From: Eledone cirrhosa | Lineage: Eukaryota | DNA length: 64,000 nucleotides | NCBI GenBank assembly: GCA_964016885.1 | Contig: OZ024742.1 | Location: forward strand, 1,364,001 to 1,428,000 | Direction: 5' to 3' | In this document: in pieces, positions 746-64,000 of the stretch | Position numbering within the stretch: position 1 is the first letter of the stretch | Layout of the letters: each line of letters opens with the position of its first letter | The notes under the pieces: model-generated | Databases searched by the model: none | What the model saw: only the letters and a program-made list of their open reading frames with translations | What the model was told of the DNA's origin: nothing | Program-made: the position numbers and the translations under genes

Positions 746-864
746 ATATATACATAACGCTTGGCTCCACAGTATTTTATATCTCTCTCTCATATATGTG
801 CATAAACATATATATACAGTGGCGGACTGGGTCTAAAATATTGGTAGCCAGGAGATGAAGGAGG

Positions 865-6500: not shown

Positions 6501-9500
6501 GAAAACAGTGGAACTGTGTCAGTGACCAAGTGGCAAACAGTGGAACTGTGTCAGTGACCAAGTGGCAAACAGTGGAACTGTGTCAGTGACCAAGTGGCAA
6601 ACAGTGGACTGTGTCAGTGACCAAGTGGCAAACAGTGGACTGTCAGTGACCAAGTGGCAAACAGTGGAACTTTGTCAGTGACCAAGTGGCAAACAGTGGA
6701 TTGTCAGTGACCAAGTGGCAAACATTGGAACTGTGTCAGTGACCAAGTGGCAAACAGTGGAACTGTGTCAGTGACCAAGTGGCAAACAGTGGACTGTCAG
6801 TGACCAAGTGGCAAACAGTGGTACTGTGTCAGTGACCAAGTGGTAAACAGTGGTACTGTGTCAGTGACCAAGTGGTAAACAGTGGTACTGTGTCAGTAAC
6901 CAAGTGGTAAACAGTGGAACTGTGTCAGTAACCAAGTGGCAAACAGTGGACTGTCAGTGACCAAGTGGCAAACAGTGGTACTGTGTCAGTGACCAAGTGG
7001 CAAACAGTGGAACTGTGTCAGTGACCAAGTGGCAAACAGTGGAACTGTGTCAGTGACCAAGTGGCAAACAGTGGACTGTCAGTGACCAAGTGGCAAACAG
7101 TGGAACTGTGAGAGTGACCAAGTGGCAAACAGTGGAACTGTGTCAGTGACCAAGTGGCAAACAGTGGACTGTCAGTGACCAAGTGGCAAACAGTGGACTG
7201 TCAGTGACCAACTTACAAACAGTGGAACTGTGTCAGTGACCAAGTGGCAAACAGTGGAACTGTGAGAGTGACCAAGTGGCAAACAGTGGACTGTGTCAGT
7301 GACCAAGTGGCAAACAGTGGAACTGTGTCAGTGACAAAGTGGCAAACAGTGGAACTGTGTCAGTGACCAAGTGGCAAACAGTGGAACTGTGAGAGTGACC
7401 AAGTGGCAAACAGTGGAACTGTGTCAGTGACCAAGTGGCAAACAGTGGACTGTCAGTGACCAAGTGGCAAACTGTTGACTGTCAGTGACCAAGTGGCAAA
7501 CAGTGGAACTGTGTCAGTGACCAAGTGGCAAACAGTGGACTGTGTCAGTGACCAAGTGGCAAACAGTGGAACTGTGTCAGTGACCAAGTGGCAAACAGTG
7601 GAACTGTGTCAGTGACCAAGTGGCAAACAGTGGACTGTGTCAGTGACCAAGTGGCAAACAGTGGAACTGTGTCAGTGACCAAGTGGCAAACAGTGAAACT
7701 GTGTCAGTGACCAAGTGGTAAACAGTGGAACTGTGTCAGTGACCAAGTGGCAAACAGTGGAACTGTGTCAGTGACCAAGTGGCAAACAGTGGAACTGTGT
7801 CAGTGACCAAGTGGCAAACAGTGGACTGTGTCAGTGACCAAGTGGCAAACAGTGGAACTGTGTCAGTGACCAAGTGGCAAACAGTGGAACTGTGTCAGTG
7901 ACCAAGTGGCAAACAGTGGAACTGTCAGTGACCAAGTGGCAAACTGGTACTGTGTCAGTGACCAAGTGGCAAACAGTGGAACTGTGTCAGTGACCAAGTG
8001 GCAAACAGTGGACTGTCAGTGACCAAGTGGCAAACAGTGGACTGTCAGTGACCAAGTTGCAAATAGTGGAACTGTGTCAGTGACCAAGTGGCAAACAGTG
8101 GAACTGTGAGAGTGACCAAGTGGCAAACAGTGGACTGTGTCAGTGACCAAGTGGCAAACAGTGGAACTGTGTCAGTGACAAAGTGGCAAACAGTGGAACT
8201 GTGTCAGTGACCAAGTGGCAAACAGTGGAACTGTGTCAGTGACCAAGTGGCAAACAGTGGAACTGTGAGAGTGACCAAGTGGCAAACAGTGGAACTGTGT
8301 CAGTGACCAAGTGGCAAACAGTGGACTGTCAGTGACCAAGTGGCAAACAGTGGACTGTCAGTGACCAAGTGGCAAACAGTGGAACTGTGTCAGTGACCAA
8401 CTGGCAAACAGTGGACTGTGTCAGTGACCAAGTGGCAAACAGTGGAACTGTGTCAGTGACCAAGTGGCAAACAGTGGAACTGTGTCAGTGACCAAGTGGC
8501 AAACAGTGGACTGTCAGTGACCAAGTGGCAAACAGTGGACTGTCAGTGACCAAGTGGCAAACAGTGGACTGTGTCAGTGACCAAGTGGCAAACAGTGGAA
8601 CTGTGTCAGTGACCAAGTGGCAAACAGTGGACTGTCAGTGACCAAGTGGCAAACAGTGGTACTGTGTCAGTGACCGAGTGGCAAACAGTGGAACTGTGTC
8701 AGTGACCAAGTGGCAAACAGTGGAACTGTGTCAGCAACCAAGTGGCAAACAGTGGACTGTATCAGTGACCAAGTGGCAAACAGTGGAACTGTGTCAGTGA
8801 CCAAGTGGCAAACAGTGGTACTGTGTCAGTGACCAAGTGGCAAACAGTGAAACTGTGTCAGTGACCAAGTGGCAAACAGTGGAACTGTGTCAGTGACCAA
8901 GTGGCAAACAGTGGACTGTCAGTGACCAAGTGGCAAACAGTGAAACTGTGTCAGTGACCAAGTGGCAAACAGTGGTACTGTGTCAGTGACCAAGTGGCAA
9001 ACAGTGGTACTGTGTCAGTGACCAAGTGGCAAACAGTGGAACTGTGTCAGTGACCAAGTGGCAAACAGTGGAACTGTGTCAGTGACCAAGTGGCAAACAG
9101 TGGAACTGTGTCAGTGACCAAGTGGCAAACAGTGAAACTGTGTCAGTGACCAAGTGGCAAACAGTGGTACTGTGTCAGTGACCAAGTGGCAAACAGTGGT
9201 ACTGTGTCAGTGACCAAGTGGCAAACAGTGGAACTGTGTCAGTGACCAAGTGGCAAACAGTGGACTGTCAGTGACCAAGTGGCAAACAGTGGAACTGTGT
9301 CAGTGACCAAGTGGCAAACAGTGAAACTGTGTCAGTGACCAAGTGGCAAACAGTGGACTGTGTCAGTGACCAAGTGGCAAACAGTGGACTGTCAGTGACC
9401 AAGTGGCAAACAGTGGAACTGTGTCAGTGACCAAGTGGCAAACAGTGGAACTTTGTCAGTGACCAAGTGGCAAACAGTGGAACTGTGTCAGTGACCAATT

Positions 9501-12500
9501 GGCAAACAGTGGAACTGTGTCAGTGACCAATTGGCAAACAGTGGAACTGTGTCAGTGACCAAGTGGAAAACAGTGGACTGTGTCAGTGACCAAGTGGCAA
9601 ACATTGGAACTGTGTCAGTGACCAAGTGGCAAACAGTGGAACTGTGTCAGTGACCAAGTGGCAAACAGTGGAACTGTGTCAGTGACCAAGTGGCAAACAG
9701 TGGTACTGTGTCAGTGACCAAGTGGCAAACAGTGGAACTGTGTCAGTGACCAAGTGGCAAACAGTGGAACTGTGTCAGTAACCAAGTGGCAAACAGTGGA
9801 CTGTGTCAGTGACCAAGTGGCAAACAGTGGAACTGTGTCAGTGACCAAGTGGCAAACAGTGGAACTGTCAGTGACCAAGTGGCAAACAGTGGTACTGTGT
9901 CAGTGACCAAGTGGAAAACAGTGGAACTGTGTCAGTGACCAAGTGGCAAACAGTGGAACTGTGTCAGTGACCAAGTGGCAAACAGTGGAACTGTGTCAGT
10001 GACCAAGTGGTAAACAGTGGAACTGTGTCAGTAACCAAGTGACAAACAGTGGAACTGTGTCAGTGACCAAGTGGCAAACAGTGGACTGTCAGTGACCAAG
10101 TGGCAAACAGTGGAACTGTGTCAGTGACCAAGTGGCAAACAGTGGACTGTCAGTGACCAAGTGGCAAACAGTGGAACTGTGTCAGTGACCAAGTGGCAAA
10201 CAGTGGAACTGTGTCAGTGACCAAGTGGCAAACAGTGGACTGTCAGTGACCAAGTAGCAAACAGTGGAACTGTGTCAGTGACCAAGTGGCAAACAGTGGA
10301 ACTGTGTCAGTGAACAAGTGGCAAACAGTGGAACTGTGTCAGTGACCAAGTGGCAAACAGTGGAACTGTGTCAGTAACCAAGTGACAAAAAGTGGAACTG
10401 TGTCAGTGACCAAGTGGCAAACAGTGGAACTGTGTCAGTGACCAAGTGGCAAACAGTGGTACTGTGTCAGTGACCAAGTGGCAAACAGTGGAACTGTGTC
10501 AGTGACCAAGTGGTAAACAGTGGTACTGTGTCAGTGACCAAGTGGCAAACAGTGGAACTGTGTCAGTGACCAAGTGGCAAACAGTGGAACTGTGTCAGTG
10601 ACCAAGTGGCAAACAGTGGTACTGTGTCAGTGACCAAGTGGCAAACAGTGGAACTGTGTCAGTGACCAAGTGGCAAACAGTGGACTGTCAGTGACCAAGT
10701 GGCAAACAGTGGTACTGTGTCAGTGACCAAGTGGCAAACAGTGGAACTGTGTCAGTAACCAAGTGGTAAACAGTGGACTGTCAGTGACCAAGTGGCAAAC
10801 AGTGGACTGTCAGTGACCAAGTGGCAAACAGTGGACTGTTAGTGACCAAGTGGCAAACAGTGAAACTGTGTCAGTGACCAAGTGGCAAACAGTGGAACTG
10901 TGTCAGTGACCAAGTGGCAAACAGTGGACTGTCAGTGACCAAGTGGCAAACAGTGGAACTGTGTCAGTGACCAAGTGGCAAACAGTGGAACTGTGTCAGT
11001 GACCAAGTGGCAAACAGTGGAACTGTGTCAGTGACCAAGTGGCAAACAGTGGAACTGTGTCAGTGACCAAGTGGCAAACAGTGGACTGTCAGTGACCAAG
11101 TGGCAAACAGTGGAACTGTGTCAGTGACCAAGTGGCAAACAGTGGAACTGTGTCAGTGACCAAGTGGCAAACAGTGGACTGTCAGTGACCAAGTGGCAAA
11201 CAGTGGAACTGTGTCAGTGACCAAGTGGCAAACAGTGGAACTGTGTCAGTGACCAAGTGGCAAACAGTGGAACTGTGTCAGTGACCAAGTGGCAAACAGT
11301 GGACTGTCAGTGACCAAGTGACAAACAGTGGAACTGTGTCAGTGACCAAGTGGCAAACAGTGGAACTGTGTCAGTGACCAAGTGGCAAACAGTGGACTGT
11401 CAGTGACCAAGTGGCAAACAGTGGAACTGTGTCAGTGACCAAGTGGCAAACAGTGGAACTGTGTCAGTGAACAAGTGGCAAACAGTGGAAATGTGTCAGT
11501 GACCAAGTGGCAAACAGTGGTACTGTGTCAGTGACCAAGTGGCAAACAGTGGACTGTTAGTGACCAAGTGGCAAACAGTGAAACTGTGTCAGTGACCAAG
11601 TGGCAAACAGTGGAACTGTGTCAGTGACCAAGTGGCAAACAGTGGAACTGTGTCAGTGACCAAGTGGCAAACAGTGGAACTGTGTCAGTGACCAAGTGGC
11701 AAACAGTGGACTGTCAGTGACCAAATGACAAACAGTGGAACTGTGTCAGTGACCAAGTGGCAAACAGTGGAACTGTGTCAGTGACCAAGTGGCAAACAGT
11801 GGAACTGTGTCAGTGACCAAGTGGCAAACAGTGGAACTGTGTCAGTGACCAAGTGGCAAACAGTGGACTGTCAGTGACCAATTGGCAAACAGTGGAACTG
11901 TGTCAGTGACCAAGTGGTAAACAGTGGAACTGTGTCAGTGACCAAGTGGCAAACAGTGGAACTGTGTCAGTGACCAAGTGGCAAACAGTGGACTGTGTCA
12001 GTGACCAAGTGGCAAACAGTGGAACTGTGTCAGTGACCAAGTGGCAAACAGTGGAACTGTGTCAGTGACCAAGTGGCAAACAGTGGAACTGTGTCAGTGA
12101 CCAAGTGGCAAACAGTGGAACTGTGTCAGTGACCAAGTGGCAAACAGTGGAACTGTGTCAGTGACCAAGTGGCAAACAGTGGAACTGTGTCAGTGACCAA
12201 GTGGCAAACAGTGGACTGTCAGTGACCAAGTGGCAAACAGTGGACTGTCAGTGACCAAGTGGCAAACAGTGGACTGTCAGTGACCAAGTGGCAAACAGTG
12301 GAACTGTGTCAGTGACCAAGTGGTAAACAGTGGAACTGTGTCAGTGACCAAGTGGCAAACAGTGGAACTGTGTCAGTGACCAAGTGGCAAACAGTGGAAC
12401 TGTGTCAGTGACCAAGTGGCAAACAGTGGACTGTCAGTGACCAAGTGGCAAACAGTGGACTGTCAGTGACCAAGTGGCAAACAGTGGACTGTCAGTGACC

Positions 12501-14037
12501 AAGTGGCAAACAGTGGAACTGTGTCAGTGACCAAGTGGTAAACAGTGGAACTGTGTCAGTGACCAAGTGGCAAACAGTGGAACTGTGTCAGTGACCAAGT
12601 GGCAAACAGTGGACTGTCAGTGACCAAGTGGCAAACAGTGGAACTGTGTCAGTGACCAAGTGGCAAACAGTGGAACTGTGTCAGTGACCAAGTGGCAAAC
12701 AGTGGACTGTCAGTGACCAAGTGGCAAACAGTGGAACTGTGTCAGTGACCAAGTGGCAAACAGTGGAACTGTGTCAGTGACCAAGTGGCAAACAGTGGAC
12801 TGTCAGTGACCAAGTGGCAAACAGTGGACTGTCAGTGACCAAGTGGCAAACAGTGGAACTGTGTCAGTGACCAAGTGGCAAACAGTGGAACTGTGTCAGT
12901 GACCAAGTGGCAAACAGTGGAACTGTGTCAGTGACCAAGTGGCAAACAGTGGACTGTGTCAGTGACCAAGTGGCAAACAGTGGACTGTCAGTGACCAAGT
13001 GGCAAACAGTGGACTGTCAGTGACCAAGTGGCAAACAGTGGACTGTCAGTGACCAAGTGGCAAACAGTGGAACTGTGTCAGTGACCAAGTGGCAAACAGT
13101 GGAACTGTGTCAGTGACCAAGTGGCAAACAGTGGTATTGTGTCAGTGACCAAGTGGCAAACAGTGGAACTGTGTCAGTGACCAAGTGGCAAACAGTGGAA
13201 CTGTGTCAGTGACCAAGTGGCAAACAGTGGACTGTCAGTGACCAAGTGGCAAACAGTGGAACTGTGTCAGTGACCAAGTGGTAAACAGTGGAACTGTGTC
13301 AGTGACCAAGTGGCAAACAGTGGAACTGTGTCAGTGACCAAGTGGCAAACAGTGGACTGTCAGTGACCAAGTGGCAAACAGTGGACTGTCAGTGACCAAG
13401 TGGCAAACAGTGGACTGTCAGTGACCAAGTGGCAAACAGTGGAACTGTGTCAGTGACCAAGTGGTAAACAGTGGAACTGTGTCAGTGACCAAGTGGCAAA
13501 CAGTGGAACTGTGTCAGTGACCAAGTGGCAAACAGTGGACTGTCAGTGACCAAGTGGCAAACAGTGGAACTGTGTCAGTGACCAAGTGGCAAACAGTGGA
13601 ACTGTGTCAGTGACCAAGTGGCAAACAGTGGACTGTCAGTGACCAAGTGGCAAACAGTGGAACTGTGTCAGTGACCAAGTGGCAAACAGTGGAACTGTGT
13701 CAGTGACCAAGTGGCAAACTGTGGACTGTCAGTGACCAAGTGGCAAACAGTGGACTGTCAGTGACCAAGTGGCAAACAGTGGAACTGTGTCAGTGACCAA
13801 GTGGCAAACAGTGGAACTGTGTCAGTGACCAAGTGGCAAACAGTGGAACTGTGTCAGTGACCAAGTGGCAAACAGTGGACTGTCAGTGACCAAGTGGCAA
13901 ACAGTGGAACTGTGTCAGTGACCAAGTGGCAAACAGTGGAACTGTGTCAGTGACCAAGTGGCAAACAGTGGAACTGTGTCAGTGACCAAGTGGCAAACAG
14001 TGGAACTGTGTCAGTGACCAAGTGGCAAACAGTGGAA
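3553..14037. repeat. Satellite, 32 bp unit GTGACCAAGTGGCAAACAGTGGAACTGTGTCA (29/31 bp variants)
   Basis: About 10.5 kb uninterrupted tandem array; the first ~630 bp is a 126-bp four-monomer higher-order repeat. Confidence 0.98.
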
Positions 14038-14129
14038 CAAAGATGTTGACCCCAATAAATGTGAAGGAAATTGAACAGTTTTGTGTTTTTGAATTATTAA
14101 ATGACTCTTCTATGATGTAATTGTTTTAG

Positions 14130-26900: not shown

Positions 26901-27492
26901 ACCGTCCAACTAATCTCTTCTTTCGGTACTTCACTGCGACCATTCTCAGTCACGTCTTCGAGTTTGATTCTCCGACATGACGCCATCGCCACCATCAACA
27001 TATGATTTACCCTCTCCCTCTCTCTCTCCAACATCATCATCATAGTCCTTAGCTTCCTACCTCCCCTACCACCACCACCACCATCATCATCATCACCATG
27101 ACACTTTGCCTCTCTCCCTCTTCTTCACCTTCTATCATCATCATCGCCACCATCAACATAGTCCTTAGCATTTTCCTACCTCCATCATCATCACCATCAA
27201 CAACAGCATATCCTTTGTCTTCTTCTTGTCTCTCCTCCTTCTCCATCAACATCACCACCACCCCTGCTTCATACCACCACCCTACCTCCTCTATCCCCTC
27301 CTTCATATCAGCACCACCACCAGTCCTTCATACCACCACCCTACCTCCTCTACCCCCTCCTTCATACCACCACCCTACCTCCTCTACCCCCTCCTTCATA
27401 CCACTACCCTACCTCCTCTACCCCCTCCTTCATACCACCACCCTACCTCCACTACACTAATGTCAGTGGTGACTTCTCATGTTCTTGAGCCC

Positions 27493-30400
27493 AGAACCAG
27501 ATCCCTACACACAACTATCGCGGCGGGGTTGACCCCTGAACCAGATCCCTACACACGGCTATCGGGGTGGGGTTGACCTCTGAACCAGATCCCTACACAC
27601 AGCTATCGCGGCGGGGTTGACCCCTGAACCAGATCCCTACACACGGCTATCGGGGTGGGGTTGACCTCTGAACCAGATCCCTACACACGGCTATCGGGGT
27701 GGGGTTGACCCCTGAACCAGATCCCTACACACGGCTATCGGGGTGGGGTTGACTCCTGAACCAGATCCCTACACACAGCTATCGGGGTGGTGTTGACCCC
27801 TGAACCAGATCCCTACACACGGCTATCGGGGTGGGGTTGACTCCTGAACCAGATCCCTACACACAGCTATCGGGGTGGTGTTGACCCCTGAACCAGATCC
27901 CTACACACAGCTATCGGGGTGGGGTTGACCCCTGAACCAGATCCCTACACACAGCTATCGGGGTGGGGTTGACCTCTGAACCAGATCCCTACACACAGCT
28001 ATCGGGGTGTGGTTGACTCCTGAACCAGATCCCTACACACAGCTATCGGGGTGGGGTTGACCTCTGAACCAGATCCCTACACACAGCTATCGGGGTGGTG
28101 TTGACCCCTGAACCAGATCCCTACACACGGCTATCTGTGTGGGGTTGACTCCTGAACCAGATCCCTACACACAGCTATCGGGGTGGTGTTGACCCCTGAA
28201 CCAGATCCCTACACACGGCTATCGGGGTGGTGTTGACCCCTGAACCAGATCCCTACACACGGCTATCGGGGTGGGGTTGACTCCTGAACCAGATCCCTAC
28301 ACACAGCTATCGGGGTGGGGTTGACTCCTGAACCAGATCCCTACACACAGCTATCGGGGTGGGGTTGACTCCTGAACCAGATCCCTACACACAGCTATCG
28401 GGGTGGGGTTGACCCCTGAACCAGATCCCTACACACAGCTATCGGGGTGGGGTTGACCTCTGAACCAGATCCCTACACACAGCTATCGGGGTGGGGTTGA
28501 CCCCTGAACCAGATCCCTACACACAGCTATCTGTGTGGGGTTGACTCCTGAACCAGATCCCTACACACGGCTATCGGGGTGGGGTTGACCCCTGAACCAG
28601 ATCCCTACACACAGCTATCGGGGTGGGGTTGACCCCTGAACCAGATCCCTACACACAGCTATCTGTGTGGGGTTGACTCCTGAACCAGATCCCTACACAC
28701 AGCTATCGGGGTGGGGTTGACCCCTGAACCAGATCCCTACACACAGCTATCGGGGTGGGGTTGACTCCTGAACCAGATCCCTACACACAGCTATCGGGGT
28801 GGGGTTGACCTCTGAACCAGATCCCTACACACAGCTATCGGGGTGGGGTTGACCTCTGAACCAGATCCCTACACACAGCTATCGGGGTGGGGTTGACCTC
28901 TGAACCAGATCCCTACACACAGCTATCGGGGTGGGGTTGACTCCTGAACCAGATCCCTACACACAGCTATCGGGGTGGGGTTGACCTCTGAACCAGATCC
29001 CTACACACAGCTATCGGGGTGGGGTTGACCTCTGAACCAGATCCCTACACACAGCTATCTGGGTGGGGTTGACTCCTGAACCAGATCCCTACACACAGCT
29101 ATCTGGGTGGGGTTGACTCCTGAACCAGATCCCTACACACAGCTATCGGGGTGGGGTTGACCTCTGAACCAGATCCCTACACACAGCTATCTGGGTGGGG
29201 TTGACTCCTGAACCAGATCCCTACACACAGCTATCTGGGTGGGGTTGACTCCTGAACCAGATCCCTACACACAGCTATCTGGGTGGGGTTGACTCCTGAA
29301 CCAGATCCCTACACACAGCTATCTGGGTGGGGTTGACTCCTGAACCAGATCCCTACACACAGCTATCTGGGTGGGGTTGACTCCTGAACCAGATCCCTAC
29401 ACACAGCTATCTGGGTGGGGTTGACTCCTGAACCAGATCCCTACACACAGCTATCGGGGTGGGGTTGACCTCTGAACCAGATCCCTACACACAGCTATCG
29501 GGGTGGGGTTGACTCCTGAACCAGATCCCTACACACAGCTATCGGGGTGGGGTTGACTCCTGAACCAGATCCCTACACACAGCTATCGGGGTGGGGTTGA
29601 CCTCTGAACCAGATCCCTACACACAGCTATCGGGGTGGGGTTGACTCCTGAACCAGATCCCTACACACAGCTATCTGGGTGGGGTTGACTCCTGAACCAG
29701 ATCCCTACACACAGCTATCGGGGTGGGGTTGACTCCTGAACCAGATCCCTACACACAGCTATCGGGGTGGGGTTGACTCCTGAACCAGATCCCTACACAC
29801 AGCTATCGGGGTGGGGTTGACTCCTGAACCAGATCCCTACACACAGCTATCGGGGTGGGGTTGACCTCTGAACCAGATCCCTACACACAGCTATCGGGGT
29901 GGGGTTGACCTCTGAACCAGATCCCTACACACAGCTATCGGGGTGGGGTTGACTCCTGAACCAGATCCCTACACACAGCTATCGGGGTGGGGTTGACCTC
30001 TGAACCAGATCCCTACACACAGCTATCGGGGTGGGGTTGACTCCTGAACCAGATCCCTACACACAGCTATCGGGGTGGGGTTGACCTCTGAACCAGATCC
30101 CTACACACAGCTATCGGGGTGGGGTTGACTCCTGAATCAGATCCCTACACACGGCTATCGGGGTGGGGTTGACTCCTGAACCAGATCCCTACACACGGCT
30201 ATCGGGGTGGGGTTGACCTCTGAACCAGATCCCTACACACAGCTATCGGGGTGGGGTTGACTCCTGAACCAGATCCCTACACACAGCTATCGGGGTGGGG
30301 TTGACTCCTGAACCAGATCCCTACACACGGCTATCGGGGTGGGGTTGACCTCTGAACCAGATCCCTACACACAGCTATCGGGGTGGGGTTGACTCCTGAA

Positions 30401-33400
30401 CCAGATCCCTACACACAGCTATCGGGGTGGGGTTGACCTCTGAACCAGATCCCTACACACAGCTATCGGGGTGGGGTTGACTCCTGAACCAGATCCCTAC
30501 ACACGGCTATCGGGGTGGGGTTGACTCCTGAACCAGATCCCTACACACAGCTATCTGGGTGGGGTTGACTCCTGAACCAGATCCCTACACACAGCTATCG
30601 GGGTGGGGTTGACGCCTGAACCAGATCCCTACACACAGCTATCGGGGTGGGGTTGACTCCTGAACCAGATCCCTACACACGGCTATCGGGGTGGGGTTGA
30701 CTCCTGAACCAGATCCCTACACACAGCTATCGGGGTGGGGTTGACCCCTGAACCAGATCCCTACACACGGCTATCGGGGTGGGGTTGACCCCTGAACCAG
30801 ATCCCTACACACAGCTATCGGGGTGGGGTTGACCTCTGAATGAGATCCCTACACACGGCTATCGGGGTGGGGTTGACCTCTGAACCAGATCCCTACACAC
30901 AGCTATAGGGGTGGGGTTGACCCCTGAACCAGATCCCTACACACAGCTATCGGGGTGGGGTTGACCTCTGAACCAGATCCCTACACACAGCTATAGGGGT
31001 GGGGTTGACCCCTGAACCAGATCCCTACACACGGCTATCGGGGTGGGGTTGACCTCTGAACCAGATCCCTACACACGGCTAACGGGGTGGGGTTGACCTC
31101 TGAACCAGATCCCTACACACAACTATCGGGGTGGGGTTGACCTCTGACCCAGATCCCTACACACAGCTATCGGGGTGGGGTTGACCCCTGAACCAGATCC
31201 CTACACACGGCTATCGGGGTGGGGTTGACCTCTGAACCAGATCCCTACACACAGCTATCGGGGTGGGGTTGAGCCCTGAACCAGATCCCTACACACGGCT
31301 ATCGGGGTGGGGTTGACCTCTGAACCAGATCCCTACACACAGCTATCGGGGTGGGGTTGACCCCTGAACCAGATCCCTACACACAGCTATCGTGGTGGGG
31401 TTGACACCTGAACCAGATCCCTACACACGGCTATCAGGGTGGGGTTGACCTCTGAACCAGATCCCTACACACAGCTATCGGGGTGGGGTTGACCCCTGAA
31501 CCAGATCCCTACACACAGCTATCGGGGTGGGGTTGACCTCTGAACCAGATCCCTACACACAGCTATCGGGGTGGGGTTGACCCCTGAACCAGATCCCTAC
31601 ACACGGCTATCGGGGTGGGGTTGACCTCTGAACCAGATCCCTACACACAGCTATCGGGGTGGGGTTGACCCCTGAACCAGATCCCTACACACGGCTATCG
31701 GGGTGGGGTTGACCTCTGAACCAGATCCCTACACACGGCTATCGGGGTGGGGTTGACCTCTGAACCAGATCCCTACACACAGCTATCGGGGTGGGGTTGA
31801 CCTCTGAACCAGATCCCTACACACGGCTAACGGGGTGGGGTTGACCTCTGAACCAGATCCCTACACACAACTATCGGGGTGGGGTTGACCCCTGAACCAG
31901 ATCCCTATACACAGCTATCGGGGTGGGGTTGACCCCTGAACCAGATCCCTACACACGGCTATCGGGGTGGGGTTGACCTCTGAACCAGATCCCTACACAC
32001 AGCTATCGGGGTGGGGTTGACCCCTGAACCAGATCCCTACACACAGCTATCGGGGTGGGGTTGACCCCTGAACCAGATCCCTACACACAGCTATCGGGGT
32101 GGGGTTGACCCCTGAACCAGATCCCTACACACAGCTATCGGGGTGGGGTTGACCCCTGAACCAGATCCCTACACACAGCTATCGGGGTGGGGTTGAACCC
32201 TGAACCAGATCCCTACACACAGCTATCGGGGTGGGGTTGACCCCTGAACCAGATCCCTACACACAGCTATCGTGGTGGGGTTGACCCCTGAACCAGATCC
32301 CTACACACGGCTATTGGGGTGGGGTTGACCCCTGAACCAGATCCCTACACACAGCTATCGGGGTGGGGTTGACCCCTGAACCAGATCCCTACACACGGCT
32401 ATCGGGGTGGGGTTGACCCCTGAACCAGATCCCTACACAGCTATCTGGGTGGGGTTGACCCCTGAACCAGATCCCTACACACAGCTATCGGGGTGGGGTT
32501 GACCCCTGAACCAGATCCCTACACACGGCTATCGGTGTGGTGTTGACCCCTGAACCAGATCCCTACACACGGCTATCGGTGTGGTGTTGACCCCTGAACC
32601 AGATCCCTACACACGGCTATCGGGGTGGGGTTGACCCCTGAACCAGATCCCTACACAGCTATCTGGGTGGGGTTGACCCCTGAACCAGATCCCTACACAC
32701 AGCTATCGGGGTAGGGTTGACCCCTGAACCAGATCCCTACACACAGCTATCGGGGTGGGGTTGAACCCTGAACCAGATCCCTACACACAGCTATCGGGGT
32801 GGGGTTGACCCCTGAACCAGATCCCTACACACGGCTATCGGTGTGGTGTTGACCCCTGAACCAGATCCCTACACACGGCTATCGGTGTGGTGTTGACCCC
32901 TGAACCAGATCCCTACACACGGCTATCGGGGTGGGGTTGACCCCTGAACCAGATCCCTACACACAGCTATCTGGGTGGGGTTGACCCCTGAACCAGATCC
33001 CTACACACAGCTATCGGGGTGGGATTGACCCCTGAACCAGATCCCTACACACGGCTATCGGGGTGGGGTTGACCTCTGAACCAGATCCCTACACACAGCT
33101 ATCGGGGTGGGGTTGACCCCTGAACCAGATCCCTACACACAGCTATCGGGGTGGGGTTGACCCCTGAACCAGATCCCTACACACAGCTATCGGGGTGGGG
33201 TTGACCCCTGAACCAGATCCCTACACACAGCTATCGGGGTGGGGTTGACCCCTGAACCAGATCCCTACACACAGCTATCGGGGTGGGGTTGAACCCTGAA
33301 CCAGATCCCTACACACAGCTATCGGGGTGGGGTTGACCCCTGAACCAGATCCCTACACACGGCTATTGGGGTGGGGTTGACCCCTGAACCAGATCCCTAC

Positions 33401-34607
33401 ACAGCTATCTGGGTGGGGTTGACCCCTGAACCAGATCCCTACACACAGCTATCGGGGTGGGGTTGACCCCTGAACCAGATCCCTACACACGGCTATCGGT
33501 GTGGTGTTGACCCCTGAACCAGATCCCTACACACGGCTATCGGGGTGGGGTTGACCCCTGAACCAGATCCCTACACAGCTATCTGGGTGGGGTTGACCCC
33601 TGAACCAGATCCCTACACACAGCTATCGGGGTAGGGTTGACCCCTGAACCAGATCCCTACACACAGCTATCGGGGTGGGGTTGAACCCTGAACCAGATCC
33701 CTACACACAGCTATCGGGGTGGGGTTGACCCCTGAACCAGATCCCTACACACGGCTATCGGTGTGGTGTTGACCCCTGAACCAGATCCCTACACACGGCT
33801 ATCGGTGTGGTGTTGACCCCTGAACCAGATCCCTACACACGGCTATCGGGGTGGGGTTGACCCCTGAACCAGATCCCTACACACAGCTATCTGGGTGGGG
33901 TTGACCCCTGAACCAGATCCCTACACACAGCTATCGGGGTGGGATTGACCCCTGAACCAGATCCCTACACACGGCTATCGCTGTGGTGTTGACCCCTGAA
34001 CCAGATCCCTACACACGGCTATCGGTGTGGTGTTGACCCCTGAACCAGATCCCTACACACGGCTATCGGGGTGGGGTTGACCCCTGAACCAGATCCCTAC
34101 ACACGGCTATCGGGGTGGGGTTGACCCCTGAACCAGATCCCTACACACGGCTATCGGGGTGGGGTTGACCCCTGAACCAGATCCCTACACACAGCTATCG
34201 GGGTGGGGTTGACCCCTGAACCAGATCCCTACACACAGCTATCGGGGTGGGGTTGACCCCTGAACCAGATCCCTACACACAGCTATCGGGGTGGGGTTGA
34301 CCCCCTGAACCAGATCCCTACACACGGCTATCGGTGTGGTGTTGACCCCTGAACCAGATCCCTACACACGGCTATCGGTGTGGTGTTGACCCCTGAACCA
34401 GATCCCTACACACGGCTATCGGTGTGGTGTTGACCTCTGAACCAGATCCCTACAGACAGCTATCGGGGTGGGGTTGACCCCTGAACCAGATCCCTACACA
34501 CGGCTATCGGGGTGGGGTTGACCCCTGAACCAGATCCCTACACACGGCTATCGGGGTGGGGTTGACCCCTGAACCAGATCCCTACACACAGCTATCGGGG
34601 TGGGGTT
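27493..34607. repeat. Satellite, 44 bp unit CCAGATCCCTACACACAGCTATCGGGGTGGGGTTGACCCCTGAA
   Basis: About 160 tandem copies with regional variant blocks; rare variants at 32711 and 33021 recur exactly 920 bp later. Confidence 0.98.
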
Positions 34608-38627: not shown

Positions 38628-41525
38628 CGGTTGTCTACCACAATCTCCACTCAGTCTCTACCATACCCAGGAGTAATTACTCGGCTGTCTACCACAATCT
38701 CCACTCAGTCTCTACCATACCCAGGAGTAATTACTCGGCTGTCTACCACAATCTCCACTCAGTCTCTACCATAGCCAGGAGTAATTACTCGGCTGTCTAC
38801 CACAATCTCCACTCAGTCTCTACCTTAGCCAGGAGTAATTACTCGGCTGTCTACCACAATCTCCACTCAGTCTCTACCATAGCCAGGAGTAATTACTCGG
38901 CTGTCTACCACAATCTCCACTCAGTCTCTACCATAGCCAGGAGTAATTACTCGGCTGTCTACCACAATCTCCACTCAGTCTCTACCATAGCCAGGAGTAA
39001 TTACTCGGCTGTCTACCACAATCTCCACTCAGTCTCTACCATAGCCAGGAGTAATTACTCGGCTGTCTGCCACAATCTCAACTCAGTCTCTACCATAGCC
39101 AGGAGTAATTACTCGGCTGTCTACCACAATCTCAACTCAGTCTCTACCATAGCCAGGAGTAATTACTCGGTTGTCTACCACAATCTCCACTCAGTCTCTA
39201 CCATAGCCAGGAGTAATTACTCGGTTGTCTACCACAATCTCCACTCAGTCTCTACCATAGCCAGGAGTAATTACTCGGTTGTCTACCACAATCTCCACTC
39301 AGTCTCTACTATACCCAGGAGTAATTACTCGGTTGTCTACCACAATCTCCACTCAGTCTCTACTATACCCAGGAGTAATTACTCGGCTGTCTACCACAAT
39401 CTCCACTCAGTCTCTACTATACCCAGGAGTAATTACTCGGCTGTCTACCACAATCTCCACTCAGTCTCTACCATACCCAGGAGTAATTACTCGGCTGTCT
39501 ACCACAATCTCCACTCAGTCTCTACCATAGCCAGGAGTAATTACTCGGCTGTCTACCACAATCTCCACTCAGTCTCTACCTTAGCCAGGAGTAATTACTC
39601 GGCTGTCTACCACAATCTCCACTCAGTCTCTACCATAGCCAGGAGTAATTACTCGGCTGTCTACCACAATCTCCACTCAGTCTCTACCATAGCCAGGAGT
39701 AATTACTCGGCTGTCTACCACAATCTCCACTCAGTCTCTACCATAGCCAGGAGTAATTACTCGGCTGTCTACCACAATCTCCACTCAGTCTCTACCATAG
39801 CCAGGAGTAATTACTCGGCTGTCTACCACAATCTCAACTCAGTCTCTACCATAGCCAGGAGTAATTACTCGGCTGTCTACCACAATCTCAACTCAGTCTC
39901 TACCATAGCCAGGAGTAATTACTCGGCTGTCTACCACAATCTCCACTCAGTCTCTACCATAGCTAGGAGTAATTACTCGGCTGTCTACCACAATCTCCAC
40001 TCAGTCTCTACATAGCCAGGAGTAATTACTCGGCTGTCTACCACAATCTCAACTCAGTCTCTACCATAGCTAGGAGTAATTACTCGGCTGTCTACCACAA
40101 TCTCCACTCAGTCTCTACCATAGCCAGGAGTAATTACTCGGCTGTCTACCACAATCTCCACTCAGTCTCTACCATAGCCAGGAGTAATTACTCGGCTGTC
40201 TACCACAATCTCCACTCAGTCTCTACCATAGCCAGGAGTAATTACTCGGCTGTCTACCACAATCTCCACCCAGTCTCTACCATAGCCAGGAGTAATTACT
40301 CGGTTGTCTACCACAATCTCCACTCAGTCTCTACCATAGCCAGGAGTAATTACTCGGTTGTCTACCACAATCTCCACTCAGTCTCTACTATACCCAGGAG
40401 TAATTACTCGGCTGTCTACCACAATCTCCACTCAGTCTCTACCATAGCCAGGAGTAATTACTCGGTTGTCTACCACAATCTCCACTCAGTCTCTACCATA
40501 GCCAGGAGTAATTACTCGGTTGTCTACCACAATCTCAACTCAGTCTCTACCATAGCCAGGAGTAATTACTCGGCTGTCTACCACAATCTCCACTCAGTCT
40601 CTACCATAGCCAGGAGTAATTACTCGGCTGTCTACCACAATCTCCACTCAGTCTCTACCTTAGCCAGGAGTAATTACTCGGCTGTCTACCACAATCTCCA
40701 CTCAGTCTCTACCTTAGCCAGGAGTAATTACTCGGCTGTCTATCACAATCTCCACTCAGTCTCTACCATACCCAGGAGTAATTACTCGGCTGTCTACCAC
40801 AATCTCCACTCAGTCTCTACCTTAGCCAGGAGTAATTACTCGGCTGTCTACCACAATCTCCACTCAGTCTCTACCATACCCAGGAGTAATTACTCGGCTG
40901 TCTACCACAATCTCCACTCAGTCTCTACCTTAGCCAGGAGTAATTACTCGGCTGTCTACCACAATCTCCACTCAGTCTCTACCTTAGCCAGGAGTAATTA
41001 CTCGGCTGTCTACCACAATCTCCACTCAGTCTCTACCATACCCAGGAGTAATTACTCGGCTGTCTACCACAATCTCCACTCAGTCTCTACCATAGCCAGG
41101 AGTAATTACTCGGCTGTCTACCACAATCTCCACTCAGTCTCTACCATAGCCAGGAGTAATTACTCGGCTGTCTACCACAATCTCCACTCAGTCTCTACCA
41201 TAGCCAGGAGTAATTACTCGGCTGTCTACCACAATCTCCACTCAGTCTCTACCATAGCCAGGAGTAATTACTCGGCTGTCTACCACAATCTCCACTCAGT
41301 CTCTACCATAGCCAGGAGTAATTACTCGGCTGTCTACCACAATCTCCACTCAGTCTCTACCATAGCCAGGAGTAATTACTCGGCTGTCTACCACAATCTC
41401 CACTCAGTCTCTACATAGCCAGGAGTAATTACTCGGCTTTCTATCACGATCTCCACTCGGAAGTCTCTACCATAGCCAGGAGTAATTACTCGGCTGTCTA
41501 CCACAATCTCCACTCGGAAGTCTCT
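38628..41525. repeat. Satellite, 54 bp unit GGCTGTCTACCACAATCTCCACTCAGTCTCTACCATAGCCAGGAGTAATTACTC
   Basis: About 53 highly homogeneous copies, each with the palindrome GAGTAATTACTC. Confidence 0.98.
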
Positions 41526-56166: not shown

Positions 56167-57435
56167 GTAAATATCTTTAAGTCGTTTGGAAGCCTCGACA
56201 ATGCAAACAGACAGAGTAGGAGACACCAGACACAAGAGACAGAGAGGCACCGAAGGCAAGTGCTTCCTTAAAATGCCACACCTGGGCGAGAATACCACCA
56301 ACGCTATCCGCAAGGCTATACGGAGGGAGGGCCTTGACATCCACCTAGCCCACTCGGGCCCCTCCCTGCGAAGATGCCTCTCCAGGAAACCCGGGAAATC
56401 AACTGACGCGTGCTCCCTCAGAGACTGCCCGATACGCCATGCGAACACTTGCCTATGGACATACGTCGTGTATAAGATAGAATGTGACAGGTGCAACCAA
56501 TACTATATAGGTAGCACAATCCGACCTTTGCACATCCAGATCAAGGAACACACTAAAACCAGGGCCTCGTCTTTCCGGAAACACATAGACAAATGCGGAA
56601 ACAAAGACGGAAGGCCCATTGTCACAATTCTAGCGACTGAAAGAAACGGCACGTTACGTATCAAGGAAGCACTTTTTATCAAACGCCTGGAACCGCAAAT
56701 AAACAATCGATCCGAGAGAAGCGAAATAAGGTGGTTGGTTTAAGTTAACAAATGATGCAGCAACACACGCACACACACACACAAGCGAGACAACTACACA
56801 CGCACACGCACACACACACACACAGTAGCATTCCACCATACGAACATACTACACTGCCAATACAGAGGAACAAGGCAACAACACACACACACTCAAGCGA
56901 GACAACAACACACGCACACACACACACAGTAACATTTAACAAACAGGCAGAGAATGGACTGACAGCTAGTGCCACCACACTCCCACAATTGAAAGAACTA
57001 CTTCGGCCGCTGACCTCTGCCCGACCGACCCCATTTCACGCGCACGCGCGCTCTGCTGAATACCTCAGATATTGAAAACAACAAACAGCGGAGGACGCGT
57101 TTCGCACCTTTCCGACAGACAACCTTTCCCCCACCCCGGAAAAAAACCCCAGTTGATGGATGTGAATCCGAAATATATAGGGACAATTAAATCTCTCCCA
57201 AGGTAACTCTCTCTCGTGTTGTTATTTTAATTTTATCCTTTATACTCTTTCCTTCATTCCTCTGCACGTCTTATACACGCCACGCATCTCAACGTACACC
57301 CACTTACATCTCTCTCTCCACCACCGGATCTTGTTACCCGGAGATTTACCCATTTGCATTGTCAAGGCTTCCAAACGACTTAAAGATATTTACCTATTAT
57401 TCCACAATGCTTCAAGGAAACTTCAATACTCTCTT
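56167..57435 (+). mobile_element. Penelope-like element, 5'-truncated: GIY-YIG endonuclease plus pseudo-LTR
   Basis: ORF to 56743 with VVYKIEC.RC.QYYIGSTIRPL..IKEH...EALFI...PQIN; degenerate hammerhead at 57147-57182; 41-bp inverted repeat 56167-56207 / 57353-57393. Confidence 0.9.
57147..57182 (+). ncRNA. Degenerate minimal hammerhead in the Penelope pLTR
   Basis: CCC-CAGTTGA-TGGAT(gtga)ATCC-GAAA-TATAT-A-GGG; two substitutions relative to CUGAUGA. Confidence 0.5.
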
Positions 57436-59180: not shown

Positions 59181-60095
59181 AATTATCTTATGTTGTTTAT
59201 TACATAATTAATAAGCTCTGTAGCCTACATAGAGCACTCTCTTTTCCTTTACCTTTCCTACCTACGGAAATACTTCATTCATATATATATATGTATATAG
59301 TGTACATGTGTGTTTATGTAAAGTAAATTTTCACCCCTCAGGTTTTTTTTGGGAGTTTTATTCTAACTCATTACTTTTTCATAGCTAATTTTTTATTTTT
59401 TTTATTATTTTATTTCCTACTGTCTCTGTCCCTCCAAATTATATCTTTTCTACCTCTCTTGTTAGTCCAGTTGCCTTTTATTCACAACGGATAGCAGTGG
59501 AAATATCTTTACTGCAAGATGCAACAAACTTACCTCGTATTTTGAAATCTTTCTGAAGAAATGCAATATTTAATGTATTGCTAGTGAATGGGCACAGTAA
59601 TAATATTGATATGCAACCAGCACTATGTAGACTTATATTGTATTGAAACATATATTATAGAATGAACTTTTGATAAAATACTTCACTTTTTTTTACACTT
59701 CACGCCTAGTGTTTGTTTTTCCTATACATTTAAATATATATATATATATATACAAGACGGGCTTCCTCAGTTTCCTTCTACCTGGTCATCTCAAGGTTAC
59801 AGATGATACTTGCCCAAGGTGCCATACTATGGGATATATCTTGAGACTGTGGTTATAAATTGACCTTCTTAACCACATAGCCATGTCTACATCTCCAATC
59901 AGTAGTTTCACCATTTACTATACTATTTCTTAACTCCCACCAACTCCACGATAAAGTATTAACAGATGTTACACCATCTAACTCTTTTACTTGTTCCAGC
60001 CATTTGGCTGAGGCCATGCAGGGGCACCACCCCTATGGTCTTTAATCTACAATGTCTGTATTTACTGTAATTTCTCATCTAATTTTTATATGCAG

Positions 60096-60173
60096 GTTCA
60101 CTATAATGCCAGGTCTTACCATTTAACACCTTTCACACTCTTCCAAATAATTGTAAACCTGCAACAGAAACAG
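60096..60173 (+). CDS. SLC25A46: SLC25A46 exon (VHYNARSYHLTPFTLFQIIVNLQQKQ); gene continues beyond the window
   Basis: tatgcag acceptor and CAG|gtaggt donor, 78 nt, phase 0-0; resembles vertebrate VNYHAQHYHLTPFT. Confidence 0.93.
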
Positions 60174-60324
60174 GTAGGTCTTATCTCTGACTTCATCCCT
60201 TATCACAACCATTGTCATAGCAGTTGTCAACATCACAACTATTGTCATAGCAGTTGTCAACATCAGTCATAATCAACATCATTGTAGTTGTCATTGTTAA
60301 TATTATTAGTTATGATCTTAGTTA

Positions 60325-62285
60325 GTGTACTTAGCACACAGGGAGGTTGAGGGTAGGAGGTTTGCCAATGTTCTGCGACGGGAAGATCAGAGGCATGCGG
60401 TGTTCCACATTGCAAGGCAGTGTGTCAATGCAAATCAGGATGTTGTTGGAGATAAATGTGTCCGGAATGATGCCGGTGTACTTAGTGTCACGAATGGTCA
60501 GAAAAAGGAGGCCTGGAAATGTCATGATGAGAGACTGATAAATGTGGAGAACGAATGGGAGAGAGAGAAATTACCCTTAGTAGATCCGACAGAGGGACCA
60601 TTGAGATTGACGAATATAGGGTCCAAGAGGCGATTAAGGAAATGAAAAATGGTAAGGCTGCTGGACCATCGGGAATAGTTGCTGAGATGCTGAAGGCATC
60701 AGGATACGTAGGCACTAAACTGGTTGCACGCATCATCAATCAGGCTATATATGGTGGTGTCATACCCAAAGACTGGTGCAGCAGTATTCTCATAAATTGC
60801 TACAAAGGTAAAGAGATGCTCTGGAGAGAAGCAATTATAGGGGTATAAAACTGATGGATCAGGTTATGAAAGTGGCAGAAAGGATTTTAGCACAACTAAT
60901 TAGAGAAAGGGTCAAACTAGATGAGATGCAGTTTGGTTTTGTGCCTGGCAAGAGTACAACAGATTCCCTCTTCTTGGTGAGACAATTACAAGAGAGATTC
61001 TTAGAGAAAAATAAGCCACTATACTTAGCCTTTGTTGACCTAGAGAAGGCCTTTGATAGGGTACCCCGATCTGTCATCTGGTGGTCCCTAAGGAAACTAG
61101 GTGTTTAGGAATGGCTTGTGAGGACAGTGCAAACTTTGTACAGAGGTACTGTCAGTAAAGTCAGAGTAGGAATGGAGTTTAGTGAGGAATTCCAGGTACA
61201 AGTAGGAGTACATCAAGGTTCGGTCCTCAGCCCGCTCTTGTTCATTATAGTCCTCCAAGCCATAACACTGGCTGTCCATGGGAATTTCTCTATGCTGATG
61301 ATCTGGTTCTTATAGCAGAATCTGCAGAGGAGCTAGAGAATAAATTCTGGCTATGGAAACAGCAGTTGGAAGCAAGAGGACTAAGAGTGAACCTAGCTAA
61401 GACAAAAGTGTTGATGAGTAGAAAAGAGGACAAATCCCTGATTCCGTCAGGGAAATGGCCATGTTCGATATGCAGAAAAGGAACTGGCATAAATTCTATA
61501 AAATGCACACGATGCAGATCCTGGGTACACAAGAGATGTAGCGGGATAGCAGGCAAACTAACAGGTAGGGAGAAATATGTATGCAGTAGATGTACGGGAA
61601 ATTAGACAGTAGAAGTCGCATTGATAGATACACTTTTCAAATGCAGGCGGGTGCTATAGAAGTGGTGGATAGCTTCCGGTACCTAGAAGATCATTAGCAT
61701 GGGAGGGGGGTGTTCCGAGGCCATAGTATCTAGAATAAGGACGGGTTGGAAGAAGTTTAGGGAGCTGCTTCCTCTGTTGACGAAGAAGGGTTTCTCCCTG
61801 CGTACGAAAGGCCGGTTATATGATGCCTGTGTGAGGAGCGCGATGTTGCATGGTAGTGAGACATGGGCAGCAACTGCAGAGGATATGCGACGGCTGGAGA
61901 GAAATGAGGCAAGCATGCTCCGTTGGATGTGCAGTGTAAATGTGCGTGAACGACCCAGCATAAATGTGTTGAGAGAGAAACTGTGTCTGAGAGGGATAGA
62001 ATGTAGTGTACGGGAGAGGAGACTGAGGTGGTATGGACATGCGCATGGAGGATGACCGATGGGTGAAGAAGTGCCAGGAATTGCCAGTTGAAGGAAGACA
62101 TGGTAGAGGTAGACCACGAAAAACATGGGCGGAGGTGGTGAGAACAGACCTCAGATTGCTCAAGCTCACGGTGGAGATGATGGAGGACCGTGACAAGTGG
62201 AGAGATGCTGTGCTGAATAAGACCCGTCCCACCCTTGCAAGCAGGGAAAAGCGGACGTAAAATAATGATGATGATGATCATCATC
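60325..62285 (+). mobile_element. RTE-clade LINE, 5'-truncated and decayed, with intact 3' end
   Basis: GKAAGPSG, QFGFVPGKST, AFVDLEKAFDRV, GVHQGSVLSPLLF, YADD, PHD-like finger, GRGRPRKTW, (GAT)n tail. Confidence 0.93.
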
Positions 62286-62415
62286 GAGAATGGTGGATTA
62301 GTAGCAGAGTTAGTAGAGTGACCGACAACATGCTTTGTGGTATACAGTTACATTCCTTTACGTTCTCAGTTCAAATTAATACATACATACATTTAACATC
62401 ATTTAACATTCATTA

Positions 62416-62750
62416 TGGAGGCACATGGCTTACTGGTTAGAGCATTGGCCTTGCACTCGAAAGGTTGTGAGTTCAATTCTCAGACCGGGTGATGTGTTGT
62501 TTCCTTGAGCAAGACACTTTATTTCACATTGCTCCAGTTTACTCAGCTGTAGAAATGAGATGATAGGGACTGGGGTCCCTATCATTCCACTGCAAACTGG
62601 TTGTGGAGGTTCCACGGCAAAAAAGCACCCAGCACTCACTGTAAATGAGGTTGGTGTTAGGAAGGGCATCCAGCTGTAGAAATCAAGCCAGAATCAGTTC
62701 CCGTCTCACCCTTGCAAGCAGGGAAAAAGTGGACGTAAAATGATGATGAT
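62416..62750 (+). mobile_element. Full-length CORE-type SINE
   Basis: Same family as 54861-55200. Confidence 0.9.
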
Positions 62751-63104
62751 ATTTCCCTGCTAGCGATATATATATTGAGGTAGTGTCCTAGCATCAAATA
62801 CTGTTGATGGTTGAATGGAACATATTGAGGTAGTGTCCTAGCATCAAATACTCTTCATGTCACCTTTTTCATCATTATCATCGTTTTTACATCCATTTTT
62901 TTTCCACTCTTGCATGGGTTTATATATATATATATATATATAGAATTTGGATTTAATGCTCTGAAATAGCGATATATATGTGAAGACAAACAGAATATTC
63001 GAAAATATTCTGTATGTTTATAATAAACATTTTGAAGACCTAATCGCTATAGAATAGAATACGTCACGTATTACAATTTGAGATTCTCGATAAAAGCAAG
63101 GGAA

Positions 63105-63147
63105 GTAACCTACGCGTTTCATTCTTATTAGAAATCATCAGGATTAC
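63105..63147 (-). ncRNA. Type I hammerhead ribozyme (retrozyme unit, - strand)
   Basis: Exact reverse complement of 63470-63512. Confidence 0.88.
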
Positions 63148-63469
63148 ATATCCAATGCTTTTATCGAGAATGACACAGCTAGAGACTTATAGAATACTTA
63201 GCTGTGTACAGGAACTGGTTTGAAAGAGCGGTTGCCGGTCCGGCAGAAATTAGAATTTGGATTTAATGCTCTGAAATAGCGATATATATGTGAAGACAAA
63301 CAGAATATTCGAAAATATTCTGTATGTTTATAATAAACATTTTGAAGACCTAATCGCTATAGAATAGAATACGTCACGTATTACAATTTGAGATTCTCGA
63401 TAAAAGCAAGGGAAGTAACCTACGCGATAAGTCTCTAGCTGTGTCATTCTCGATAAAAGCATTGGATAT

Positions 63470-63512
63470 GTAATCCTGATGATTTCTAATAAGAATGAAA
63501 CGCGTAGGTTAC
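63470..63512 (+). ncRNA. Type I hammerhead ribozyme (retrozyme unit)
   Basis: GTAATC-CTGATGA-TTTCT(aata)AGAAT-GAAA-CGCGT-A-GGTTAC; intact core, palindromic helix III ACGCGT, predicted cleavage after A63506. Confidence 0.9.
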
Positions 63513-63781
63513 TTCCCTTGCTTTTATCGAGAATCTCAAATTGTAATACGTGACGTATTCTATTCTATAGCGATTAGGTCTTCAAAATGTTTATTATAAA
63601 CATACAGAATATTTTCGAATATTCTATGTTTGTCTTCACATATATATCGCTATTTCAGAGCATTAAATCCAAATTCTAATTTCTGCCGGACCGGCAACCG
63701 CTCTTTCAAACCAGTTCCTGTACACAGCTAAGTATTCTATAAGTCTCTAGCTGTGTCATTCTCGATAAAAGCATTGGATAT

Positions 63782-63824
63782 GTAATCCTGATGATCTCTA
63801 ATAAGAATGAAACGCGTAGGTTAC
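63782..63824 (+). ncRNA. Type I hammerhead ribozyme (retrozyme unit)
   Basis: Same as 63470 with one T>C in helix II; predicted cleavage after A63818. Confidence 0.85.
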
Positions 63825-64000
63825 TTCCCTTGCTTTTATCGAGAATCTCAAATTGTAATACGTGACGTATTCTATTCTATAGCGATTAGGTCTTCAAAAT
63901 GTTTATTATAAACATACAGAATATTTTCGAATATTCTATGTTTGTCTTCACATATATATCGCTATTTCAGAGCATTAAATCCAAATTCTAATTTCTGCCG

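Follow-up and report, generated by a model that had tools for sequence, protein, structure and literature searches.

Two-armed hammerhead arrays in Eledone cirrhosa point to a Penelope-mobilised retrozyme family, probably copied from single RNA circles

The hammerhead repeat at the right end of the window (the whole stretch of 64,000 nucleotides analysed here) belongs to a 312-nt family that is very probably a retrozyme mobilised by Penelope-like elements (PLEs). The insertion itself reads as a non-LTR retrozyme, and a PLE enzyme travelling repeatedly round one RNA circle is likely to have copied it. The retrozyme class and its mobilisation by PLEs are already known or proposed, and the sequence class is an ordinary one: a metazoan non-LTR retrozyme is known from mussel, and Cervera and de la Pena (2020, PMC7229834) already suggested that the templates are circles and that mobilisation is likely due to PLEs. 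What does the present family add? The identity of the enzyme moving animal retrozymes and the circle as its template have been proposed since 2020, resting on co-occurrence and resemblance. Here, a PLE-specific footprint lies on pure non-coding arrays, and the two likely starts of reverse transcription are mapped to about 30 nt. A literature search, which had most subscription journals, paper supplements and repeat databases outside its scope, found neither the 312-nt family nor a PLE footprint in retrozymes.

The initial annotation took 62941..64000 for a single tandem run. This does not hold: 62941-63426 is a minus-strand arm with a third core at 63141, and it meets the forward arm head to head at 63426/63427. 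The inversion and the two fixed ends, both overlooked at that stage, are the most informative features of the element. In the genome sequence the insertion extends 583 bases beyond the window end, and both of its ends lie within (TA)n. Its parts are the following.

62921..62940, no strand: (TA)n run, left end of the insertion and target site; a second (TA)n run lies past the right end, outside the window.
62941..63426, minus strand: inverted arm, 1.56 units of the 310-nt variant; its 3' end, at unit 168-172, forms the outer ('tail') end.
62941..62971, minus strand: one-sided tail of ~30 nt (unit 142-172), absent from the other end; PLE tails are described in PMC8557442 and PMC11167929.
63105..63147, minus strand: type I hammerhead motif of the inverted arm, core 63141, predicted cut between 63111 and 63110.
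63426..63427, no strand: point where the two 5'-truncated arms meet head to head, unit 307 facing unit 233.
63427..64000 and on to G000:C3:1428583, plus strand: forward arm, 3.7 units in total; inner end at unit ~141, in (TA)n.
63446..63534, plus strand: hammerhead 1 with its 16-bp helix I extension (63446-63461 pairs with 63519-63534), core 63476, predicted cut after 63506.
63507..63818, plus strand: cut-to-cut monomer of 312 nt, the predicted circle.
63637..63678, plus strand: putative RT start region, inner start at unit 131-141, inside the TA run of the unit itself; outer start at unit 166-172.
63782..63824, plus strand: hammerhead 2, core 63788, predicted cut after 63818; one private helix II mismatch.

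The RT start region surrounds the 5' strand of a stem that is kept in every related family. The inverted arm carries an arm-specific 2-nt deletion in both of its units.

By its sequence features, the element falls within the definition of a metazoan non-LTR retrozyme. The unit is 312 nt long with 99% identity between copies, in line with the near-identical 310-312 bp repeats first described. Its GC content is 0.38, and the absence of an ORF is borne out by a longest open stretch of 56 codons over the six frames of the concatemer. The arrays are bordered directly by (TA)n and have no LTR/PBS/PPT structure. The hammerhead motif, present on one polarity of the unit only, consists of a 6-bp helix I, a helix II that begins with a U-U mismatch in most units, a 2-bp helix III and a GUA site. 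The initial annotation was right about the palindromic helix III, and the 16-bp extension of helix I and all the hairpins it listed pair without mismatch. Its claim of an intact hammerhead in each unit stands for the cores at 63476 and 63788 and for their GUA cuts after 63506 and 63818, and fails for helix II at 63788, where a private change disrupts one pair. Circular folding of 63507-63818, suggested there as a check, gives -69.7 kcal/mol, and the monomer is more stable than its shuffles (z = -5.0; 0 of 100 shuffles equally stable). The suggested Rfam search does return a hammerhead, below the gathering score: the best match is Hammerhead_HH9 with 20.6 bits against 52 (E = 0.12), and at E up to 1 the region 60000-64000 yields only sub-threshold hammerhead, tRNA and hairpin-driven microRNA matches. 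Moreover, the minimum-energy fold predicted for the hammerhead region engages core bases in other pairs and competes with the active fold. Given this fold and the sub-threshold score, strong monomer cleavage is not expected. Cleavage would probably be weak and take place as dimers, because helix III has 2 bp and is palindromic. For Xenopus retrozymes, one of nine predicted dimers is reported to cleave (10.64898/2026.07.22.740005).

How general is the two-armed layout? The 66 stretches fetched from the genome gave 67 insertions (two stretches contained a second insertion; six search loci that repeat larger stretches were left out, as was L047, an apparent duplicate of L025). Two arms are present in 54 of the 67, every one of them head to head, and 13 are single-armed; the loci were picked as best or exact-core matches, which inflates both arm length and the two-armed share. 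For the same reason, many loci having been chosen by exact core match, core conservation within the 312-nt family was not used as evidence. In 48 of the 54 two-armed insertions one arm stops at unit 130-141 (~141), in the TA run that belongs to the unit, and the end of its partner lies at 162-174 (~168). The remainder comprises one insertion with two tail ends and five with one other end, one of which is a spurious short second arm. TA adjoins 110 of 116 classified 3' ends, the arm junctions overlap by at least 1 nt in 41 of 54 cases, and arms reach up to 11 units. For these insertions in (TA)n a TSD is not definable. The inner arm is the longer one in 27 insertions and the tail arm in 21, so that neither arm is simply a fold-back copy and both appear to be RNA-primed. 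Fold-back of a single cDNA as the source of the second arm was rejected on the arm lengths together with the young PLE copies described below. A long-read fold-back artefact was rejected as well, since the two ends differ in a constant manner and are seen again in independent contigs. Contigs of run X1, which behaves like genomic DNA, have loose TA ends at both positions, 63675 and 63959, among the loose ends listed (8 of 39). Runs X4 and X6, from two other organisms, gave one contig each, of unit length plus ~30 nt, which a circle or a tandem alike would yield. At L004, L019, L023 and L026, composite TA-rich motifs recur in several copies in either flank, which could reflect target slippage or reiterative copying.

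This two-armed, two-ended organisation is recognisably a PLE footprint. In endonuclease-positive Neptune-type PLEs (Craig et al. 2021, PMC8557442; Arkhipova et al. 2013, PMC3846280; Frangieh et al. 2024, PMC11167929), copies likewise show a head-to-head, inverted, 5'-truncated arm and a tail of 30-40 nt at one end, the footprint set out in PMC8557442 and PMC3846280. These elements also share with the 312-nt family two internal RT start sites, microsatellite targets and a hammerhead upstream of the starts. In vitro, a PLE has two adjacent RT start sites, nicks and extends both target strands and is predicted to act as a dimer, the tail being the interval between the two internal starts (PMC11167929). 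The 312-nt family differs from Neptune-type PLEs in having no ORF and in forming pure arrays, with arms of up to 11 units, and from the PLE families examined here in that its unit has no DNA similarity to their pLTRs.

Which PLEs does this genome hold? A GIY-YIG search, with 150 of 10,595 candidates scored, led to 40 fetched loci that cluster into 8 families. Those inspected carry RT, a CxxC linker and GIY-YIG, which makes them apparently Neptune-type, a label that follows the linker described in PMC8557442. One PLE subfamily is very young, with 46 stop-free matches of which 32 have an identical score. Its 4,734-bp unit has ORFs of 455 and 784 codons, with RT and GIY-YIG above the Pfam cut-offs, and in the match list for 19 loci all 10 clearly two-armed copies pair an inner end with a tail end at a distance of 33 nt, as in the footprint of the 312-nt family. 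A second young PLE family is present. The intact young PLE is found at G000:C5:17085500-17099000 (L132 2424-10000 and L133) as two head-to-tail copies that are 100% identical; its two ORFs overlap, and the overlap contains a T-rich run, possibly a site of frameshifting. It carries a hammerhead-like motif with a U3-A8 core and an altered GAAA. Hammerhead motifs with the U3-A8 core occur in several PLE families here (L073-L092, L107-L126), three of which have a short motif in common in their tails; the retrozyme tail lacks it. A U3-A8 core is tolerated in hammerheads.

Is the unit then no more than the terminal repeat of one of these elements? By blastn it has no similarity to the pLTRs of the 8 families (40 GIY-YIG loci; 150 of 10,595 candidates scored) and shares no DNA with the two young subfamilies. 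None of the PLEs examined sharing DNA with it, the unit is not the pLTR of any of them. PLE coding sequence is joined to the array at none of the 80 sampled loci; at 16 of them PLE fragments occur nearby, as separate insertions or across an assembly gap. The match lists for 60 loci of related families show no joined PLE coding sequence, and the 15 arms of single-armed insertions have no PLE arm on the 5' side. One candidate retrozyme-PLE chimera (L103) was discarded, an assembly gap separating the two. At L017 3376-4684, a 312-nt-family insertion sits in a TA run just 3' of a PLE terminal-repeat hammerhead-like motif.

The family is large. The exact 34-nt core pattern has 514 matches in the 3.0 Gb genome and a looser pattern 14,206, with none for the reversed control in either case, which supplies the genome-wide copy number that the initial annotation had asked for. 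Unit matches are spread over at least 11 contigs. Most of the 14,206 looser cores belong to a younger sister subfamily, 96% identical and 310-311 nt long, whose units within one insertion are nearly always identical. Very young insertions already hold up to 16 cores, which favours an array length set at insertion.

These data bear on a proposal made for vertebrates, in which Li, Clavereau and Pollet (2026, 10.64898/2026.07.22.740005) link retrozymes to pLTRs and propose local amplification. Applied here, the unit would be nothing more than the pLTR of some coding PLE: single copies or short stumps of it would have inserted, and unequal exchange at the site would have built up the array. Xenopus retrozymes do resemble pLTRs (10.64898/2026.07.22.740005), and local duplications are found in some of our arrays (L018, L060). 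Set against this are the 80 array loci, none with joined PLE coding sequence, the inverted arms, both multimeric and of one common haplotype, and the 16 cores reached in very young insertions. In contrast to the preprint's model, the data favour a length set at insertion and argue against local amplification as the origin of the arrays; we consider the pLTR route very unlikely. The initial annotation had itself named the unit being only the pLTR of a coding PLE as the competing case. Nothing at the 80 loci or in 8 to 9 PLE families corresponds to it, while an unsampled coding parent could still exist.

If arrays are born long, do their units come from a pool or from a single source? Comparison of 353 unit pieces gives a divergence of 0.63% for units in the same arm, 0.66% for units in opposite arms of an insertion and 1.82% for units at different loci. 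At 13 polymorphic sites, the major allele is fixed in 623 locus-site cases and the minor allele in 114, which leaves 17 mixed cases where 322 would be expected had a pool supplied the units. Of 89 informative cases, 81 show the same allele in both arms of the insertion. Pairs from the sister subfamily (73 monomers, from 9 of 14 stretches) behave in parallel, differing by 0.18, 0.07 and 2.80 bases within arms, between arms and between loci, respectively; the 9 loci hold 7 haplotypes. Cut-site crossings are exact, without indel, in 263 of 263 cases, and 5' ends show no enrichment at the cut site (3 of 123, against 3.5 expected). Together, the clonality, the exact crossings and the lack of a 5'-end pile-up indicate a bottleneck of one unit per insertion, which is re-expanded at insertion. 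A monomer circle is probably the simplest explanation of this bottleneck. Local exchange between units also occurs, to judge from 24 partly shared alleles within insertions, the mosaics at position 190 (6 loci mixed), the arm-specific deletion and a long heterogeneous array of a related family on contig C14, described below. Alleles that break a stem make up 3 of 25 insertion-fixed and 63 of 197 single-unit alleles (p = 0.04), a weak sign of selection on the RNA.

Could the enzyme have read a linear RNA instead? One possibility is PLE-driven insertion from an uncut multimeric transcript of a long uniform source array, with circles as a side product. Uncut RNA is the main PLE substrate in vitro, where hammerhead cleavage is not needed (PMC11167929), and multimeric retrozyme RNAs are reported in axolotl (PMC7229834). 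The weak predicted ribozyme fold also fits such a template, exact cut-site crossings are equally compatible with it, a few arrays are mosaic (L024, L048, L059), and apparent clonality could stem from a set of long uniform source arrays, although each haplotype would then require one of its own. On a linear multimer, though, a new mutation stays in one unit, yet 25 distinct alleles are fixed across entire insertions. Likewise, copying cannot lengthen arrays, yet arrays of 12 to 19 units have locus-specific haplotypes, and no independent pair of loci shares two separate mosaic alleles at the same rank. We regard this route as unlikely. The other possibility is a cut linear monomer on which the enzyme jumps repeatedly from the 5' end to the molecule's own 3' end, without a covalent circle. 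The long helix I extension would keep both monomer ends together and the clonality is compatible with it, while excluding jumps between different molecules. Template jumps usually leave scars. With 263 of 263 crossings free of insertion or deletion and no pile-up of 5' truncations at the cut site, such jumping appears highly improbable.

With a circle as the preferred template, the following sequence of events can be envisaged. Arrays would be transcribed, and the transcripts cut by the ribozyme, probably weakly and as dimers. Host RNA ligase would close the cut monomers to circles. A PLE protein, probably a dimer, would nick both strands of a (TA)n target and prime two cDNAs on one RNA, at unit ~141 and at unit ~168. 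Each cDNA would roll for 0.2 to 11 turns until a random stop, and the two cDNA ends would then be joined, mostly by short microhomology. We lean, if only somewhat, towards a wider reading: that the insertion is the record of one PLE dimer rolling round a single ribozyme-made circle from two starts, that thousands of very young insertions would thus show retrozymes to move as circles by PLE TPRT and to be born as arrays, and that circles are perhaps behind PLE tandems generally. This last extension is suggested because the young coding PLE also occurs as identical head-to-tail copies of 4.7 kb. As an intact, very young PLE is present in the same genome, the existing in vitro assay could compare circle and linear templates.

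How far does the unit's structure extend beyond this family? Two further families are 70-80% alike over part of the unit and collinear throughout. Both fixed ends are shared by the related families, with the inner end of family B at 147 (family B judged by eye). A 50-pair structure has 95% of its cells paired in 16 monomers across families, compared with 31-48% in slid controls, and 12 of the 50 pairs are altered on both sides, helix II being among the covarying parts. These figures come with limits: the structure was derived from the same sequences, no more than three or four independent lineages are represented, and the alignment is off by three columns in helix I of the two closest rows. 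By eye, one related family combines the U3-A8 core form with a full helix III, and a hairpin shows a GCAA-type loop in place of a UUCG-type loop; both types are stable loops. The young non-coding non-LTR retrozyme of the initial annotation, possibly mobilised by Penelope, thus gains support from copy number, PLE footprint, clonal arrays and cross-family covariation, all read from sequence.

Metazoan non-LTR retrozymes, as described in PMC7229834 and 10.64898/2026.07.22.740005, resemble the family in many respects: non-coding tandem units of 150-450 bp with one type I hammerhead each, a GC content below 50%, no LTR/PBS/PPT, a self-paired monomer, thousands of copies and PLEs in the same genome. 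The HHR_Amex motifs of axolotl are also similar, with a weak helix III and a helix II that has a U-U mismatch at its base. The main texts of these papers describe tandem arrays only, with no inverted arms or tail, whereas the 312-nt family is two-armed with two fixed ends. Known metazoan retrozymes sometimes have longer TSDs, in contrast to (TA)n insertions with no definable TSD. For them cleavage and circles have been demonstrated, while the 312-nt family is known from its sequence. Plant LTR retrozymes and hammerhead viroids or satellite RNAs are also small structured hammerhead RNAs with a (here predicted) circle (PMC7229834, PMC7761336). In these the hammerhead is described as type III; the 312-nt family has type I and no LTR/PBS/PPT. 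Unlike viroids and satellite RNAs, it has its ribozyme on one polarity and shows no sign of RNA-to-RNA replication or infectivity. The 'viroid-like' label first given to this family finds no support as far as RNA-to-RNA replication is concerned.

Other hammerhead repeats were seen in the same genome. A ~28-unit array of related family B at G000:C14:23499000-23508200 (L225-L227) has periodic variation, which suggests local, satellite-like growth. Another hammerhead tandem family, with a period of ~500-530 nt, occurs on both strands (L024 2530-7638, L144 7644-9734, L020, L117). Short palindromic mini-elements in (TA)n (L116 8700-8906, L123 2530-2730, L054, L055, L135) centre on two back-to-back hammerheads whose helix II is like that of the 312-nt family. 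Elsewhere in the window, 56195-56716 is a remnant of a PLE coding region, 55% identical to the L117 family, and 60000-62280 holds a broken LINE, which we take to be RTE-like, with RT motifs and short repeats at its 3' end. A tRNA-like SINE lies at 62426-62483 (sub-threshold in Rfam), and long minisatellite arrays occupy 855-14038, 27485-34607 and 38628-41515, with periods of 26, 32, 44 and 54 bp.
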